Positions 16,804 through 47,440 of a DNA stretch of 64,000 nt are shown in pieces. Where the stretch lies: positions 174,008 to 238,007 of the forward strand of contig JAFQOO010000005.1 in the NCBI GenBank assembly GCA_017403145.1, read 5' to 3'. Each line of letters opens with the position of its first letter. Position 1 is the first letter of the stretch. Made by a program: the position numbers and the translations under genes. The notes under the pieces were generated by a model, which was not told the origin of the DNA, searched no databases, and saw nothing but the letters and a program-made list of their open reading frames with translations. This DNA is from Clostridia bacterium (lineage in GTDB: Bacteria; Bacillota; Clostridia; Christensenellales; DTU072).

Positions 16804-16888
16804 TGGTGGGCAGGGGTGGATTCGAACCACCGAAGGAACTTCCGGCAGATTTACAGTCTGCTCCATTTGGCCACTCTGGAACCTACCC
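16804..16888 (-). tRNA. tRNA-Tyr(GTA)
   Basis: Cloverleaf; anticodon arm gcaga-ctgtaaa-tctgc; long variable arm; CCA. Confidence 0.95.
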
Positions 16889-16918
16889 ATATATTCAATT
16901 TATATTTTAACTCAATTT

Positions 16919-16994
16919 TGGAGCCGGCTATCGGAATCGAACCAACAACCTGCTGATTACAAATCAGCTGCTCTGCCAGTTGAGCTAAGCCGGC
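16919..16994 (-). tRNA. tRNA-Thr(TGT)
   Basis: gccggct acceptor; ctgat-ttgtaa-tcag; CCA. Confidence 0.95.
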
Positions 16995-17001
16995 ATTGTA
17001 T

Positions 17002-17077
17002 TGGTGCCTCGGGGCGGACTTGAACCACCGACACGGGGATTTTCAGTCCCCTGCTCTACCAACTGAGCTACCGAGGC
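17002..17077 (-). tRNA. tRNA-Phe(GAA)
   Basis: gggga-ctgaaaa-tcccc; CCA. Confidence 0.96.
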
Positions 17078-17084
17078 AAAAAAT

Positions 17085-17161
17085 TGGCGATCCGGAAGGG
17101 ACTCGAACCCTCGACCTCTAGCGTGACAGGCTAGCGTTCTAACCATCTGAACTACCGGACC
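17085..17161 (-). tRNA. tRNA-Asp(GTC)
   Basis: ctagc-ctgtcac-gctag; CCA. Confidence 0.96.
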
Positions 17162-17182
17162 GCAAAAATTGCATATATTGTG

Positions 17183-17259
17183 TGGTGGGCCTTCACGGAC
17201 TCGAACCGCGGACCAATCGGTTATGAGCCGACCGCTCTAACCAACTGAGCTAAAGGCCC
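17183..17259 (-). tRNA. tRNA-Ile2(CAT, lysidine-modified)
   Basis: gggcctttagctcagttggttagagc...ggctcataaccg resembles Firmicute tRNA-Ile2 rather than Met. Confidence 0.85.
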
Positions 17260-17285
17260 ACACAGGATATTCATTTGTAAGTTGC

Positions 17286-17362
17286 TGGTCGGGGTGAAGG
17301 GATTTGAACCCCCGACTTTCTGCTCCCAAAGCAGACGCGCTACCAAGCTGCGCCACACCCCG
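17286..17362 (-). tRNA. tRNA-Pro(TGG)
   Basis: cggggtg acceptor; tctgc-tttggga-gcaga; CCA. Confidence 0.96.
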
Positions 17363-34135: not shown

Positions 34136-34166
34136 TAAAAAAAGCCGACTACCGGCTTATTTCATT

Positions 34167-34865
34167 TTAAGATTGTAAAATTTTAAGCAGTCTGTCGGCA
34201 AGCGACGATATTTCCTTACTAGAAAGAGCCCTTTCGTCTTGCGAAATATCTATTACCTCGTCAAAAGTGATATCGACGGGCCTATTATCAAAAACAATTA
34301 TTCTATCTGCAAGTAGTAGAGCTTCGTTTAGGTCGTGCGTTATAAGAATTACGGTTTTATTATCTTTAGATAATAGTTTTAGAAAATATCTTTCTAGTTT
34401 TGACTTTAACGCAGTATCAAGCCCCCTAAACGGTTCGTCCATAATTAGAAGTTTGGATGGATATAAAAAGCCTCTAGCAAGAGCAACGCGTTGCGCCATA
34501 CCTGTAGACAGGTTCTGCGGGTAGGAATTTATTTCACCTTTTAGCTCTACCTGTTCAAGTATATCGATAATAGCCTTTTCTCTTTCAACTTTATCTTTTA
34601 TTACGTGCGAAACTGCATACGACAAGTTTTGTTTAACAGTCAATGATGGAATAAGCGATGCTTCACCAAACACGTAGGATATATTGCCATCGCACTCGAT
34701 TTTTCCATCATAATCAATCAAGCCCGCAATAATTTTAAGCAAAGTCGTTTTACCAATACCCGACCTTCCCATTATAGCGGTAATCTTACCTTTTTCGCAT
34801 TCAAGGTTAAAATTTTCGAAAATATTCTTATCGCCGTAGCTTTTATTCAAATTTATAATTCTCAT
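34167..34865 (-). CDS. ABC transporter ATPase (NitT/TauT/SsuB type)
   Basis: GRSGIGKTT, LSTGM, MDEPF, ITHD. Confidence 0.92.
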   Translation of the reverse strand: MRIINLNKSYGDKNIFENFNLECEKGKITAIMGRSGIGKTTLLKIIAGLIDYDGKIECDGNISYVFGEASLIPSLTVKQNLSYAVSHVIKDKVEREKAIIDILEQVELKGEINSYPQNLSTGMAQRVALARGFLYPSKLLIMDEPFRGLDTALKSKLERYFLKLLSKDNKTVILITHDLNEALLLADRIIVFDNRPVDITFDEVIDISQDERALSSKEISSLADRLLKILQS

Positions 34866-35638
34866 TTTTTAACCCTCACAGCAAAAAGTTTTATTAAAGA
34901 AAACACTCCTTCTAAAGCATAACTTAGTGTTATTGCCATTATCGTCCAACCAAGCAATTCGGCTGTATCAAAATACATTTTGCTAATTTGCATATTAACA
35001 CCCATTGATGAGAAGGTTTGAGCAAGCACTTCACCTGCAATAGTTACTTTAACACCAAGTGATACGTTTGCTTTCATTGCATCCAAAGAAGTTGGCAAAA
35101 TTTCCGGAACGTAAAGCCCTACTATGCGCTTCCATACAGGCACCTTATAAGCTTTACTCATATCAATTAACTCAAGACTTATACCGTTTAGAGAACTCAA
35201 AAATGATGCATAGAGTTGTGGGAATAATATCAAGAATGCAATTAATATAGGTGCAGAATTAGAATCTAGCCAAATTAGAGCTAGCAATATAATGGACATT
35301 GTAGGAACGGAACGCAATATAACGATTATTGGGCTTATTACTTTTGCAAATTGTGGAATAACGTAACCTATTATAGCAAAAACTATTGCACATAAAACTG
35401 CTATAGCAAATGCGTATAACGACCTTCCTAAAGTGCTACCAACCGCTAGCCAAAAATCTTCCTTTCCCAATAAAACAAACAATCTTTTTAACGATTGAAT
35501 GGGCGTAGGTAATATCATTTCTACGTCAACTACTTTTGAAGCAATAAACCATATAAGCAAGAAGAGCCCTACCCCTAAAATGGGGTAGAGCAAATTTGTT
35601 AAATTTAGTGATTTAAGTTTCAAAAGTAATTTTTTCAT
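34862..35638 (-). CDS. ABC transporter permease (NitT/TauT type)
   Basis: ILPTP, LRSVP, IAGEVL; EAA-like loop. Confidence 0.9.
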   Translation of the reverse strand: MKKLLLKLKSLNLTNLLYPILGVGLFLLIWFIASKVVDVEMILPTPIQSLKRLFVLLGKEDFWLAVGSTLGRSLYAFAIAVLCAIVFAIIGYVIPQFAKVISPIIVILRSVPTMSIILLALIWLDSNSAPILIAFLILFPQLYASFLSSLNGISLELIDMSKAYKVPVWKRIVGLYVPEILPTSLDAMKANVSLGVKVTIAGEVLAQTFSSMGVNMQISKMYFDTAELLGWTIMAITLSYALEGVFSLIKLFAVRVKK

Positions 35639-35641
35639 AAG

Positions 35642-36676
35642 TTATACTACATAATAGAATGCGTCGTTTGGTACACTACCACCAACAGTTTGGGGATTAA
35701 AACCGTGCAATGCGCTTAAATAGGTATTAACGTTAGCTTTAGCATTATTAGCTCTTACAATATTAATATTGCACTTTTGAACGATTGCGTTTGATAAACC
35801 TTGAAGAGCAGTTGACCCGGCTTCTTGTAAAGCGCTACCTGCCTCGGTTGCATTGCTGTTTACCCACGTAGCATTTTCTTCCATTTTATCAAGGAACCAA
35901 TCGATAAATTCATTGTGATTTCCATCAAGAATACTACTATTTACAAATACGCTTGCTTGAGGGAAGCCACCACTTGTAGCGGTTGCACCATTCCATAAAT
36001 CTTGAATAGAGAATAACGTAGTTGTTCCAGCATTAGCATTTGCTTTAGTTACAGCGGGCTCGCCCATTATACCGAACTTAGCTTTATTTTGTTTCAATAA
36101 AGGAATAAGTTCGCTACCAGCGCTAACGTATTTTAGAGCAACGTATTCACTACTTTCAACGTCGGTTGCTTGGTAAGGAATATCATAATAGTCAAGTATA
36201 TATTTGAAGGTTAAATCGGGAGTTGCACCTTGACCGATATTATAAACGGTTTGACCTTTTAATGAAGAAAGTTGTTCTTGGATGGTGTTACCAACAACTT
36301 CACCCTTTCCAACCATATAAAGAGCACCTTGAACAGCAGTTGCGACAAGCTTATATTTACCATTGTTTTTATTATATTGAGTTGCGCCGGCATTAGTAGG
36401 AGCAATCGCAATGGTTGCTTGACCGCTAGCAAGTCTAGCACCTATTCCTTCGGACCCGGTTACAACCTCATAGTTTATTTGATAACCATCGAAGGTAGGC
36501 TTATCCTTTAAAAGTTTAGCAATAGCAATTGCAGGACTACCATCGGGAACGCAAACGTTGATAACGATGGGGTCGCTTTCATCATTATCCCTATTATCAC
36601 AGCCTATTAACGTAAACAAAGCAAGTGTGCTTATTAGTAATAGTGTTACAACGGTTAGCAAAAATCTTCTTTTCAT
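35642..36676 (-). CDS. ABC substrate-binding lipoprotein (NitT/TauT/NMT1-like)
   Basis: Lipobox LIGC; PDGSP, GATPD, GEP motifs; ends PNDAFYY. Confidence 0.85.
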   Translation of the reverse strand: MKRRFLLTVVTLLLISTLALFTLIGCDNRDNDESDPIVINVCVPDGSPAIAIAKLLKDKPTFDGYQINYEVVTGSEGIGARLASGQATIAIAPTNAGATQYNKNNGKYKLVATAVQGALYMVGKGEVVGNTIQEQLSSLKGQTVYNIGQGATPDLTFKYILDYYDIPYQATDVESSEYVALKYVSAGSELIPLLKQNKAKFGIMGEPAVTKANANAGTTTLFSIQDLWNGATATSGGFPQASVFVNSSILDGNHNEFIDWFLDKMEENATWVNSNATEAGSALQEAGSTALQGLSNAIVQKCNINIVRANNAKANVNTYLSALHGFNPQTVGGSVPNDAFYYVV

Positions 36677-36691
36677 AATTTACACTTCCTT

Positions 36692-36943
36692 TTATTTTAT
36701 TTCTATATTTGTTACCGCACTCTTAACAACAACGTTATTTAGTCTACCAAGTTTGCCACTTAGTGCGGATATTTTCTCATTTGGACCTTCTACAACGATA
36801 CTAATAGCTTGAATACCGTGGTCTCTATCCGGAATTCCCATTCTACCAAGTATTATCTCACTAAAATCAGAAAGTAATGCTTGGACTTCCGGAACAACTT
36901 GTCTATCGGTAATAATAATGCCAATTACTCCTATTTTATCCAT
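36692..36943 (-). CDS. TM1266-family putative iron-only hydrogenase system regulator (ACT/NikR-C-like fold)
   Basis: IGVIGIII, IILGRMGIP, ISALSGKLGRL. Confidence 0.88.
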   Translation of the reverse strand: MDKIGVIGIIITDRQVVPEVQALLSDFSEIILGRMGIPDRDHGIQAISIVVEGPNEKISALSGKLGRLNNVVVKSAVTNIEIK

Positions 36944-37050
36944 AAAAAAATCTCCTTCGCGACGGAAAGAGACTATAATAGCATAGTGAATAAAACTATA
37001 TTATTACAAACTTACTCTCCGAACGCATCATCGATACAGGTTGTTTCTTT
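36944..37050 (-). promoter_or_regulatory. Structured 5' leader: candidate attenuator/riboswitch
   Basis: Terminator tctctttc-cgtcgc-gaaggaga-T7 sequesters SD; competing cggagag/ctttccg helix; upstream gtatc-gat-gatgc hairpin. Confidence 0.65.
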
Positions 37051-37056
37051 AATATA

Positions 37057-37086
37057 ATTATAACTTTATAGTAATTCGTATGTCAA
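37057..37086 (-). promoter_or_regulatory. SigA promoter for TM1266-ABC operon
   Basis: TTGACA-18-TATAAT overlapping end of upstream gene. Confidence 0.7.
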
Positions 37087-38085
37087 TAACTTTTCGTTTA
37101 TTCTATCAAAAAGTTTTAGGGAGCTTACGTCGATACTAACTTTTGTATCGTTAGAACAACATTCACCAACAAATTTTTCACCGGCAATATTTACGAAAAC
37201 GTATTTATTTTCGGCAATATATTTTTTATAACTACAATCAAATTGATAACCGCTGATATTCTCGGTTAGCTCGTAGCTAACAAAAACTTCGTTTGACTGA
37301 TAATCAGAAGCAATCTTTAATTTCAATCCGTCGATTTCGACGACGTTATCTACAACGCCACAGAGTATACGATTTTTATTGGGATTTACAAATTCATCAA
37401 CAAGTAAAGTTTGCGGATTGGACTTCAGTTCCTCTAAAGTGCCAATTTGGTCTTGATATCCGTTATTTAAAACCAAGACTTTATCACTAAAAGAAAAAGC
37501 TTCTTCCACACTATCGGTAGCAAAAATCACGTTACCTTTTAGTTTTGAAATTTTAGGTAAAAATTTGTCAAACAAATCCTTCCTTTCTTTACCGTTTGCA
37601 ATAGAGAAAACGTCGTCAATCAAAGTTAAGGAACTATCCCTCAATTCTAGTCTAGCTAATGCCAGAGCTATTATTTCGGGCGTGAATAGCCTAAATGCTT
37701 GTTCTTTAAAAAAGGCTTCAAGACCATAATCTTTAGCGGTTTGATAGGCAATTCCAAGCCTCTCGCTCTTGGGAATCTTGCGTAATTTTAAAGGATAGGT
37801 CAAGTTAAAAGAGACGGAACGATTTCTTATAAGACCTCCGTCATCGTATACCATTCTTAGTCCCCTATCTTTGACTTTTAGATTAGTAATATCCTTTCCA
37901 TCGAGAATGATACTACCGCTAGATGAAGGAAAAAGTCCAGCTATACATTTTAGAAGAGATGTTTTGCCCCCACCATTTTTAGACAAAACCGCCAATTTTT
38001 CTCCGTCATTAAGCACGAAACTAATGCCATTCAAGGCATTAGTTCCGTAAAAATAACTTTGATGTAAATCTTTAATTTCTAACAT
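37066..38085 (-). CDS. MalK/PotA-like ABC ATPase homologue with degenerate motifs
   Basis: ABC-ATPase layout, but Walker A SKNGGGKT, signature LFTPE, Walker B LIDD, H-loop ATDS. Confidence 0.75.
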   Translation of the reverse strand: MLEIKDLHQSYFYGTNALNGISFVLNDGEKLAVLSKNGGGKTSLLKCIAGLFPSSSGSIILDGKDITNLKVKDRGLRMVYDDGGLIRNRSVSFNLTYPLKLRKIPKSERLGIAYQTAKDYGLEAFFKEQAFRLFTPEIIALALARLELRDSSLTLIDDVFSIANGKERKDLFDKFLPKISKLKGNVIFATDSVEEAFSFSDKVLVLNNGYQDQIGTLEELKSNPQTLLVDEFVNPNKNRILCGVVDNVVEIDGLKLKIASDYQSNEVFVSYELTENISGYQFDCSYKKYIAENKYVFVNIAGEKFVGECCSNDTKVSIDVSSLKLFDRINEKLLTYELL

Positions 38086-40866: not shown

Positions 40867-43476
40867 TTAGTTTTTATTAAATACGATTTCACCGTCGACG
40901 ACGTCGATAGTTACGTCGGATTCGTTAGTAATACGTCCGCTAATGATTTCTTCGCTGAGTTTATCTTCGAATATCTTTTGAACAGCGCGCTTTAGCGGTC
41001 TAGCGCCATATTCAAGGTCGGTGCCCTTTTCCAACAAATATTGTAAAACAGCATCGGTATAGCTAAGCTTAATACCTTTTTCTTTCAAGATATCGATAAC
41101 TTTACCAATCATAATGCCTGCAATTTTTTCAAGAGAAGGTTTATCGAGCTTACGGAATATTATAATATCATCGATACGATTTATAAATTCGGGATTCATA
41201 GCATCTTTCAATGCAGAAAGTTGCTTTTCTTTCATACTTTCGTAATCGCTTGCAGCTTCAATGCTTTGTCCAAAGCCTACTCTCTTCATTTTGAGTATAT
41301 CTTTAGCACCAATATTGGAAGTCATTATTATTACGGTATTCTTAAATGATACTACCCTACCGTGGCTGTCGGTAAGTCTACCTTCATCAAGAATTTGTAA
41401 TAATAAATTGAATACTTCGGGGTGAGCTTTTTCGATTTCGTCGAATAAGACAATAGAATATGGTTTTCTTCTTACCTTTTCGGTTAATTGTCCACCTTCA
41501 TCGTAACCAACGTAACCGGGAGCAGAACCAATTAGACGAGAAACGTTAATCTTCTCCATATATTCGCTCATATCGATACGAATAAGCATATTTTCGTCGC
41601 CGAACATACTTTCGGCAAGAGCTTTGGTTAGCTCGGTTTTACCTACACCCGTAGGTCCTAGGAACATAAAGGTTCCGATGGGCTTTTTGGGGTCCTTTAA
41701 CCCTGCTCTAGAACGTTTTATAGCCCTAGCAACAGCGCTTACCGCTTCATCTTGACCGATAACTCTCTTCTTTAGTTCCGATTCGAGTTGTAAAAGCTTA
41801 ATGCTTTCTTCCTCGGTTAGATTAGAAATAGGTATATTTGTCCATTCCGAAACTATTTCGGCAATTTGTTCTTCACCAATCGATAAAACTCCGGAAGTAA
41901 TATCGTTACCCCACTTTAGTTTTAACTCTTTGATTTGAGCGTCTACGTTATCGCGTTCACCTTTTAGCGTATTTGCTTTAACAAAGTCTTCGTCTTTGGT
42001 TGCTTGTTGTATACTATCATTAAGAATGGAACGATGGTTCTCAAGTTCAACGATTTCCGTGGGCATAACCATTGCGTTTACACGCATTTTAGATGCAGCT
42101 TCGTCGATAGCATCTATTGCTTTATCGGGTAAGTACCTATCCGCAACGTATCTATCCGTTAAAGTAGCTGCAGCGACCAAGGCATCGTCGGTAATTTGCA
42201 CCATATGGTGGGTTTGATATTTGTCCCTAATTCCCTTTAAGATTTGTATAGTATCTTCTACTGACGGAGGGTCGACCATTATAGGCTTAAAGCGACGCTC
42301 TAAAGCAGCATCTTTTTCAATATGTTTACGATACTCGTCAATCGTAGTTGCACCAATTGTAGGTATATCGCCACGAGCTAACAAAGGTTTAAGTAGGTTT
42401 GCAATCGTAGCACCGCCATCGTTGTCGCCTACCGACATAATCATATGCATTTCATCGATAAAGAGTATAGTTTTATCATCTTCTAACTCTTTGAGCATAT
42501 TTTTAAATCTTTCTTCAAATTCGCCACGGAATTTAGTACCGGCGACTAAAGAACCTACGTCGAGAGCAAAAATTCGCTTATCTTTTATAATATTAGGTAC
42601 TTTGCCTTCGGCAATTGCTTGAGCGAGTCCTTCTACTATAGCAGTTTTACCTACGCCGGGTTCACCGATAATCAATGGATTATTCTTTGTTCTACGCGAA
42701 AGAACACGTAGCACTTGTTCGATTTCCTTTTCTCTACCGATTACAGGGTCGTACTTTCCGTTTTTAGCATTGGCAGTCATATCGGTACCAAAAGCCTTCA
42801 ATTCATCACTAATATCATCATTATTTTCGGGTTTTGATTTATTAGGTTTATTAGCCTTAGGTCCTTTTTGTGCATTTATTGATTTCATTAAATCGTTAAA
42901 ATCCTTACTATCGGATGCAACGAATTTAAAAAATGGTGTACTACTATTTTTCGAACCGAAACCACCGCTAAATAAATCGTTAAATAGCTTATCAAATCCA
43001 AACACGTCAACTTCGTTATCAATGTTGTCCTCGGTGGTATCATCCTCGTCTTTTATTTCGTGGAAAGATTCGGATATATAGTTGACGTCGTTTGATGATA
43101 TTTTAAATTCGGCAAGTATTTTAGCAGCAGCGCAACTTTTATCGACCATCAAACCAAGAAGTAAGTGGTCGGTATCGATAAGTTTATCGTCGTTTCTGGT
43201 TGCTTGAGCATAGGCGTGTGTAAAAACGCGTTCTACTTGGCTTTGTATTAAAACGGGGTTATAATTTTTACCGGCATATTCATTTAGAGCCTGATATACC
43301 CTTTCTTTATCAACCTTGTATTGTTTCAAAATATCATAAGCATAAGTATCTTCCACCGTTACCATTGCGGCTAATATATGTTCGGTAGCATAACTTTTTA
43401 GTTTTAAACGTTCCGCAAATTCTTGCGCTTTCTTAAGCACTTTAATTGCGTCGCTAGTAAATCTATATTGGTTCAT
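40867..43476 (-). CDS. clpC: ATP-dependent Clp protease ATPase ClpC
   Basis: Clp-N repeats; GEPGVGKT and GPTGVGKT; RIDMSEY; GYVGY; GARPL. Confidence 0.93.
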
Positions 43477-45322: not shown

Positions 45323-45409
45323 GCGGTCGTGGCGGAATTGGCAGACGCGTAAGATTCAGGCTCTTATGAAGTAAAATTCATGCAAGTTCAAATCTTGTCG
45401 ACCGCACCA
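45323..45409 (+). tRNA. tRNA-Leu(CAG)
   Basis: gcggtcg acceptor; taaga-ttcaggc-tctta; long variable arm; CCA. Confidence 0.94.
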
Positions 45410-47357: not shown

Positions 47358-47440
47358 TGGTGCGATCGATGGGACTTGAACCCATACGGTCTCCCATACG
47401 CCCCTCAAACGTACGCGTCTGCCTGTTCCGCCACGATCGC
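47358..47440 (-). tRNA. tRNA-Leu(GAG)
   Basis: gcgatcg acceptor; tacgt-ttgaggg-gcgta; CCA; followed by terminator at 47328-47353. Confidence 0.94.

Follow-up and report, generated by a model that had tools for sequence, protein, structure and literature searches.

An apparently uncatalogued attenuator RNA leads the TM1266-importer operon of a Clostridia bacterium

The window analysed here is a stretch of 64,000 nucleotides (nt) from contig JAFQOO010000005.1 (positions 174,008 to 238,007, forward strand) of the Clostridia bacterium assembly GCA_017403145.1. Within it we studied an attenuator element that leads a minus-strand operon made of a TM1266-family gene and an ATP-binding cassette (ABC) importer; positions are those of the window, and the features are collected in Table 1. 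The TM1266 gene was assigned by both PF21699 (96 bits, cut-off 27) and TIGR03959 (97.2 bits, cut-off 60.8), and its product aligned to PDB chain 2nzc_A (E = 2e-10). The substrate-binding protein of the importer matched PDB entry 3hn0, a 'nitrate transport protein' (E = 3.7e-12). Between pgi and the leader lies an orphan ABC ATPase gene of 339 amino acids (37066-38085, minus strand), whose product is much extended at its C terminus and matches ABC_tran only weakly (E = 2.6e-13). The gene ends inside the leader promoter, and most loci of the family share the arrangement pgi-ATPase-leader-TM1266.

Table 1. Features of the attenuator element and the operon behind it (window positions).
Feature	Position	Strand	Remarks
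Attenuator element	37086-36944	minus	Leads the TM1266-importer operon
Sigma-70-type promoter, TTGACA-18-TATAAT	37057..37086	minus	12/12 matches to consensus
Leader RNA, predicted, 106 nt	36944..37049	minus	Start inferred from the spacing of -10 box and promoter
Match to covariance model R1 (sensor domain with short flanks)	36994..37054	minus	73.1 bits, E = 1e-16
P1, 5' strand, ACAACCU	37038..37044	minus	Pairs with 37013..37006
P1, 3' strand, AAGUUUGU	37006..37013	minus	Partner of 37044..37038
Conserved core, CCUGUAUCGAUGAUGCGUUCGGAGAGUAAG	37011..37040	minus	Near-invariant blocks in 51 leaders
Antiterminator, 5' strand, CGGAGAG, within core	37015..37021	minus	Partner in the minimum-energy fold: CUCUUUCCG (36971..36963)
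AU-rich hairpin lengthening the antiterminator	36973..37009	minus	Sequence and length vary among relatives
Terminator hairpin, 8-base-pair core UCUCUUUC/GAAGGAGA	36949..36974	minus	Followed by U7
U7 tract	36944..36950	minus	Start codon ATG (36943) comes directly after
TM1266-family gene, 83 amino acids	36692..36943	minus	First gene of the operon; PF21699 and TIGR03959
ABC importer genes	34167..36676	minus	Three genes behind TM1266
Substrate-binding protein, lipoprotein-like, NMT1/SsuA-type relative	36676..35642	minus	PDB 3hn0 match
Permease	35638..34862	minus	Importer gene
ATPase	34865..34167	minus	Importer gene
Operon terminator	34158..34142	minus	Behind the importer ATPase

The leader promoter, which an earlier note on this DNA had proposed, was the only site to match the consensus at every position among 20 promoter-like sites between 34000 and 39600; the upstream ATPase gene has its stop codon within it. 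The same note had described a terminator that buries the ribosome-binding site and an antiterminator with an AU hairpin that would disrupt it, and both were recovered. The terminator is a G+C-containing hairpin followed at once by a U-run, and its 3' arm GAAGGAGA contains the ribosome-binding GGAG (36955..36952). In the minimum-energy fold the terminator 5' arm is consumed by an alternative helix, as expected of an attenuator; because CGGAGAG pairs with CUCUUUCCG of that arm, antiterminator and terminator are mutually exclusive.

Upstream of these helices, the 5' domain is closed by a helix that we call P1, which was the minimum-energy structure when this domain was folded alone. For the whole leader in this window, the antiterminator state was calculated at -23.9 kcal/mol and the state combining P1 with the terminator at -20.5 kcal/mol. 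P1 and the antiterminator cross, which prevents the two from forming together as nested helices, so the default would be read-through; anything that held P1 and its core folded would lead to termination, which makes the leader a predicted OFF switch. Whole-leader folding was unremarkable (z = -1.9; 7 of 200 shuffles folded at least as well), and the weight of the evidence lies in conservation.

TM1266 genes were present in 48 of 61 related genomes, and their upstream regions were taken for comparison. The block aaCCUGnAUCGAUGA-n4-5-UCGGAGAGnAAG was almost unchanged throughout the genus, while the TM1266 proteins encoded behind it diverge down to 58% identity, and it was also found in several other families of the order. 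P1 encloses the near-invariant core of ~30 nt, CCUGnAUCGAUGA-n4-5-UCGGAGAGnAAG. Across 51 leaders the blocks AUCGAUGA, UCGGAGAG and AAG were near-invariant, with linked TM1266 proteins falling to ~50% identity. Drift was seen in the spacer of the promoter, in the middle hairpin and in the sequence of the terminator, but not in the core. In 34 of 36 homologous leaders a TTGAC-type -35 box and a TAnnnT -10 box stood at the same distance and ended ~20 nt before AUCG, indicating that transcripts begin just before P1.

P1, which runs into a conserved CU...AG, changes its sequence with pairing kept (ACAA/UUGU, GUUAA/UUGAC, CAAAUAA/UUGUUUG and CAAG/CUUG). In a MAFFT alignment of the 36 leaders (A1) we counted 28 cells changed on both sides, compared with 9.3 ± 2.9 after shuffling (reached in 0 of 500 shuffles); such changes affected six of the seven pairs, and the covariation score was 0.202 against 0.088 for shuffles and at most 0.082 for slid controls. 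A second alignment of 51 leaders (A4), which is fitted to the model and leans towards it, gave 43 changed cells against 13.0 (0/500). The homologous leaders called for by the earlier note hence yielded both a conserved core and a covarying helix. They did not bear out the small 5' stem-loop GUAUC-GAU-GAUGC that the note had drawn: over the 51 leaders its covariation score of 0.073 lay below the 0.082 of shuffles and was equalled or exceeded by 375 of 500 of them, and the outer three pairs formed in only 52% of cells. The proposed layout of anti-antiterminator, antiterminator and terminator thus stands in its order, with P1 and the core, rather than the 5' hairpin, in the place of sensor and anti-antiterminator. 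Within the core, AUCGAUGA was replaced by AUCAAUGA alongside a change from CGGAGAG to CGGCGAG in four A4 leaders from two families (L048, L090, L092 and L104), and the first change occurred alone in L041 and L023. Judged from the alignment, the paired changes may mark a non-canonical contact inside the core.

The core also holds a frame of 11 codons (AUG AUG CGU ... UAG) whose AUG lies within the conserved GAUGA of most leaders, as would be needed for a leader-peptide attenuator in which the position of a ribosome decides termination. However, the frame has no preceding ribosome-binding site and is not kept among relatives, as indels of 1-2 nt between GAUGA and GGAGAG shift it (L030, L033 and L035 versus L022). 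Moreover, conservation is at the level of nucleotides rather than codons and the flanks covary as a helix. We found this reading hardly credible and rejected it for want of a ribosome site and a stable frame.

The expression platform recurred as well. A script located a hairpin with a U-run between core and start codon in 35 of the 36 homologous leaders, and the remaining one (L042) has the hairpin with only five U. In the genus leaders (n = 20) the hairpin ends 6 nt before the ATG and so covers the ribosome site too, whereas in the other 15 the terminator hairpin lies 16-99 nt upstream of the start codon. Since the ribosome site is covered only in the genus leaders, termination is the conserved output. 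The duplex between core and terminator 5' arm had a mean energy of -11.8 kcal/mol, compared with -7.6 kcal/mol for shuffled arms (35 leaders), and in 14 of the 35 at most 10 of 200 shuffles were as good. In one leader (L043) a change in the core (AUCAGAGAG) is compensated by one in the arm (CUCUUUGAU).

These data also bear on the simplest alternative, in which there is no switch: the hairpin with U7 merely ends transcription of the upstream pgi-ATPase unit, and the conserved block reflects proximity to the promoter or chance. The upstream gene does end inside the promoter without a terminator of its own, and the fold z-score is the modest one given above. Against this, the ATG directly follows the U-tract, so that TM1266 could be expressed only by read-through of the terminator; the core is positioned after the -10 box, and conservation of it reaches well past the promoter; P1 covaries; and the element is kept where the upstream neighbours differ (a peptidase S41 gene in L011 and L086). 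We consider this alternative very unlikely.

The leader was compared with the 4227 covariance models of Rfam 15, with the gathering threshold of each family as the criterion. The earlier note had not recognised the 5' element as a known aptamer, and Rfam likewise returned no known aptamer class in the leader, the whole window or 20 related loci. Between 36600 and 37400, even at E <= 10, the only match was a chance microRNA match inside a coding region; at gathering score the whole window gave transfer RNAs (tRNAs) only. In the 20 related loci the TM1266 leaders were unmatched, save for a below-threshold L10_leader in L009 (32.7 vs 44 bits). The leader itself gave no T-box match, no PyrR binding site (RF00515, threshold 54 bits) at E <= 10 and no thiamine pyrophosphate (TPP) riboswitch (RF00059, threshold 54.3 bits) even at E <= 10. 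Searches of the literature outside subscription journals and supplementary files turned up no account of an RNA preceding TM1266 or hyd genes. We conclude that the leader is an attenuator RNA that is real, conserved and apparently absent from catalogues. OFF switches built from a terminator and an antiterminator are familiar; the RNA itself matches no catalogued family.

A thiamine or hydroxymethylpyrimidine reading, suggested by the NMT1/SsuA-like binding protein, was rejected on the missing TPP match in the leader and on a normal TPP riboswitch elsewhere in the genome (its only TPP match, contig C8, 59.7 bits). The leader also carries the string AACCUGA, known from TPP riboswitches, which had prompted the same idea and which we take to be a resemblance only.

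The distribution of the RNA was examined with a covariance model (R1) built from the 36 homologous leaders. This 1.89-megabase genome contained a single strong match (Table 1), and two weak ones of 19.5 and 17.8 bits (E ~1-3), one of them on contig C1; the other, at window positions 41259-41308 inside a long reading frame, was treated as chance. Among the 61 relatives, 35 genomes were matched with exactly one copy each; these are the training leaders and hence lie before TM1266 by construction. An extension to 151 genomes of the order gave 25 matches in 24 genomes, 17 of them outside the training set, and 14 of these 17 had a TM1266 gene 44-113 nt downstream on the same strand. A further match, L099:226-286 on the minus strand (37.6 bits), has a perfect P1 (AACUUG/CAAGUU) and lies 225 nt from the contig end, with an ABC ATPase gene fragment that carries a frameshift behind it in place of TM1266; this may be a rearranged or decaying locus. 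We call leaders of this type compact. The leader in the window has all of their marks: the R1 match, a TM1266 start 51 nt past the end of the match, and a terminator between the two.

TM1266 stays first while the genes behind it vary, an SsuA-like binding protein and a permease recurring in most loci. The RNA thus travels with TM1266 and not with a particular transporter. In two other families an energy-coupling factor (ECF) S-component-like gene lies behind the compact leader and TM1266 (L086:570-1130 and L011:929-1477). Its matches to PF12822 were weak (24.5 bits in L086 and 22.6 bits in L011, cut-off 30.7); if true, it would add a third type to the importers found under this switch. The TM1266 protein also occurs without the RNA, and a strong compact RNA without TM1266 was not found in the loci examined. 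TM1266 genes without a recognisable leader motif were seen in L057-L059, L061, L062, L066, L012 and L049, notably in the subfamily with ...VNDILS.YGHLVVGRMGIPYKD....

TM1266 precedes HydE or HydG in other families, where its leader has a longer motif, in the order CUGA, a helix of four base pairs, an inner GAGGG...CCC hairpin (in about one third of aligned rows) and (G)AAGG. The four-base-pair helix covaries strongly (0.383 vs 0.188, 0/500; alignment A3). Like the compact form, the longer leader stands directly before the TM1266 gene and has a terminator after it, and the two share a signature of CUGA, a short covarying helix and a purine-rich AAGR, closed by (C)CU/AG(G) pairs. The compact form differs in having no inner GAGGG...CCC hairpin, in carrying UCGGAGAG, and in the TM1266 subfamily behind it, which has D/E where that of the longer form has Y/F (see below). 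It looks like the longer motif minus the inner hairpin. However, R1 gave no match on 14 longer-leader loci, and a model of the longer leader (R2, weak at 0.54 bits per position), run with filters off, gave no core match in the 28 of 36 compact-leader loci searched, its best match anywhere having E = 1.3. Because neither model detects the other form, the apparent kinship amounts to a likeness of position, signature and platform. Separation by a simple descriptor scan was poor (17/43 upstream sense, 3/43 antisense and 9/43 downstream controls). Extra R2 matches in hyd clusters (L055, 387-440; L009, 2779-2829) overlap ribosome-site regions and were not trusted. By eye, the longer motif occurs twice in tandem before the same gene in L067, L068, L071, L077 and L082; R2 scored some of these copies only.

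Based on these features, we propose the following mechanism. Transcription would start a few bases before P1, which would then close around the core containing GGAGAG. When an effector holds this sensor domain, GGAGAG would be barred from the terminator 5' arm; the terminator would form and RNA polymerase would stop at U7, with the ribosome site also buried in the genus. In the absence of effector, the more stable antiterminator, GGAGAG/CUCUUUCC lengthened by the AU hairpin, would form and the operon would be read. The effector would be the TM1266 protein, probably carrying a small ligand; by binding the core it would repress the operon that encodes it, in a manner that resembles PyrR on the pyr leader.

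PyrR, HutP and TRAP are the established protein-dependent attenuation mechanisms with which such a system can be compared. The PyrR attenuators of the Bacillus pyr operon (RF00515) have the same three-part leader of anti-antiterminator, antiterminator and terminator, and in the proposed scheme the likeness would extend to a small-protein regulator encoded by the first operon gene, whose binding to the 5' element would favour termination. Unlike those attenuators, the present leader does not match the PyrR site in either sequence or structure, and the gene downstream is not PyrR but TM1266, of the unrelated family PF21699, whose putative ACT-like fold was named in the earlier note.

Four points speak for TM1266 as the effector. 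Its link to the RNA is kept across changing cargo, and, like pyrR, it is the first gene. The protein has invariant basic, glycine-rich loops (GRMGxP and GKxG). Finally, the residue after the invariant GRMGxP differs with the leader, being D/E in 33 of 46 compact-leader TM1266 proteins and Y/F in 25 of 26 longer-leader ones, including the importer-neighboured L004 and L046. A pattern in helix 1, Q against N and S against H, also separates the compact- and longer-leader groups. Of the two candidates put forward in the earlier note, a small ligand and the TM1266 protein, the strict one-to-one linkage makes us lean towards the protein. By analogy with PyrR, autoregulation of its own leader by TM1266 is our favoured explanation, held tentatively and at somewhat less than even odds. 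If TM1266 binds this RNA, an uncharacterised family would gain a function in RNA-binding attenuation.

The main competitor is a true riboswitch, in which P1 and the core bind a small molecule directly and thereby favour the terminator. The ligand would be the importer substrate or a product of hydrogenase-cofactor supply, and TM1266 would be a carrier or chaperone rather than the sensor. The anatomy is typical: the closing helix covaries, unpaired nucleotides are near-invariant and the platform is of the OFF type. In OFF riboswitches such as those for TPP (RF00059), cobalamin, the molybdenum cofactor (Moco) and tetrahydrofolate (THF-II), P1 likewise surrounds conserved core nucleotides, and there is competition between the terminator and the 3' portion of the sensor. 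Cofactor riboswitches (TPP, cobalamin, Moco) usually govern both synthesis and uptake; here importers lie downstream, and biosynthesis genes stand behind the look-alike leaders. If the longer leaders before hydE/hydG and the compact leaders before importers are related, their regulon would also combine synthesis and uptake, and the apparent doubling of the motif in some longer leaders would likewise be in keeping with a riboswitch. On the other side, TM1266 is always the first gene after a well-scoring RNA, and in no case does a transporter or enzyme gene come directly behind that RNA. Unlike the OFF riboswitches named, the RNA is tied strictly to one small non-enzyme gene. Furthermore, gene context yields no candidate ligand, no known aptamer matches, and the compact core is small and has no counterpart to the hairpin of the longer form. 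We regard direct metabolite sensing as possible and less probable than autoregulation by TM1266; if it were true, the RNA would be a new riboswitch class.

Another trans-acting factor (an RNA-binding protein, small RNA or tRNA) or the kinetics of transcription and translation could also drive the switch, TM1266 then being merely a conserved first cistron. The terminator-antiterminator logic would hold for any effector. Yet nothing points to such a factor, the Rfam search returned no T-box or other match, and with one RNA copy per genome a dedicated distant regulator would serve a single site. We judge this unlikely.

Several observations weigh against a switch operated by TM1266. TM1266 is not known to bind RNA, and the family title 'putative regulator' (hydrogenase-system) is annotation only. 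The residue pattern after GRMGxP tracks the RNA type rather than the gene context, and is confounded by shared descent. A conserved core closed by P1 before an OFF platform has the classic look of a metabolite riboswitch, and some riboswitch classes, such as folE/THF-II and yjdF, are themselves associated with a single gene family. Two marginal R1 matches (L105 and L107, E ~8e-4) have no TM1266 behind them; one precedes a transglutaminase-like lipoprotein gene and the other lies inside a reading frame. Of the helices expected to covary in a conserved aptamer, P1 does so and the inner one of four base pairs (UCGA/UCGG) does not, one of its pairs being broken in 6 of 50 distinct sequences. In 6 of 35 leaders, shuffled arms did as well as the antiterminator duplex or better. 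Finally, the metatranscriptome coverage came from one run with a small share of the stretch, a single contig of 175 nt in the coding region (36771-36945), which is uninformative on RNA ends and expression level.

The wider genomic context connects the operon to [FeFe]-hydrogenase. This genome, which is 96% complete, contains two [FeFe]-hydrogenase catalytic domains, and HydE, HydF and HydG were not found in it. Among the 61 relatives, the catalytic domain was present in 60, HydG in 9, HydE in 10 and HydF in 10. None of the 35 compact-leader genomes had HydE, HydF or HydG, and in these genomes TM1266 heads importer operons. In eight of the nine HydG-positive genomes TM1266 stands directly before hydE or hydG, and in the ninth (G040) beside nth and obg. 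How active [FeFe]-hydrogenase arises in organisms without the HydEFG maturases is stated as an open question in a passage of a recent paper (Cell 2024, PMC11216029).

The genomic pattern of the compact leaders suggests uptake of a hydrogenase-cofactor precursor. A more specific version, in which the leader, alone or with TM1266, would sense an [FeFe]-hydrogenase cofactor intermediate (the 2Fe subcluster or a precursor) and the operon would be a salvage importer, seems to us rather unlikely. Thirteen of the 61 relatives had neither TM1266 nor HydG, so that an importer is not the sole possible answer for maturase-less genomes. If salvage were true, maturase-less bacteria would activate their hydrogenases with cofactor pieces made by neighbours, and hydrogenase cofactor supply would have its first riboregulator in this leader. 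As the TM1266 module heads hydE/hydG operons elsewhere and importers here, it offers a concrete transporter, binding protein and switch to test.

One relative (G050, 98% complete) has HydE and HydF, with no HydG found, and two TM1266 genes: one (L003, contig C25) is followed by a BtuC/FecCD-like permease gene and the other adjoins hydE. Elsewhere in the window, six tRNA genes are clustered at 16807-17362 on the minus strand, and two more lie at 45323-45406 (plus strand) and 47361-47440 (minus strand).

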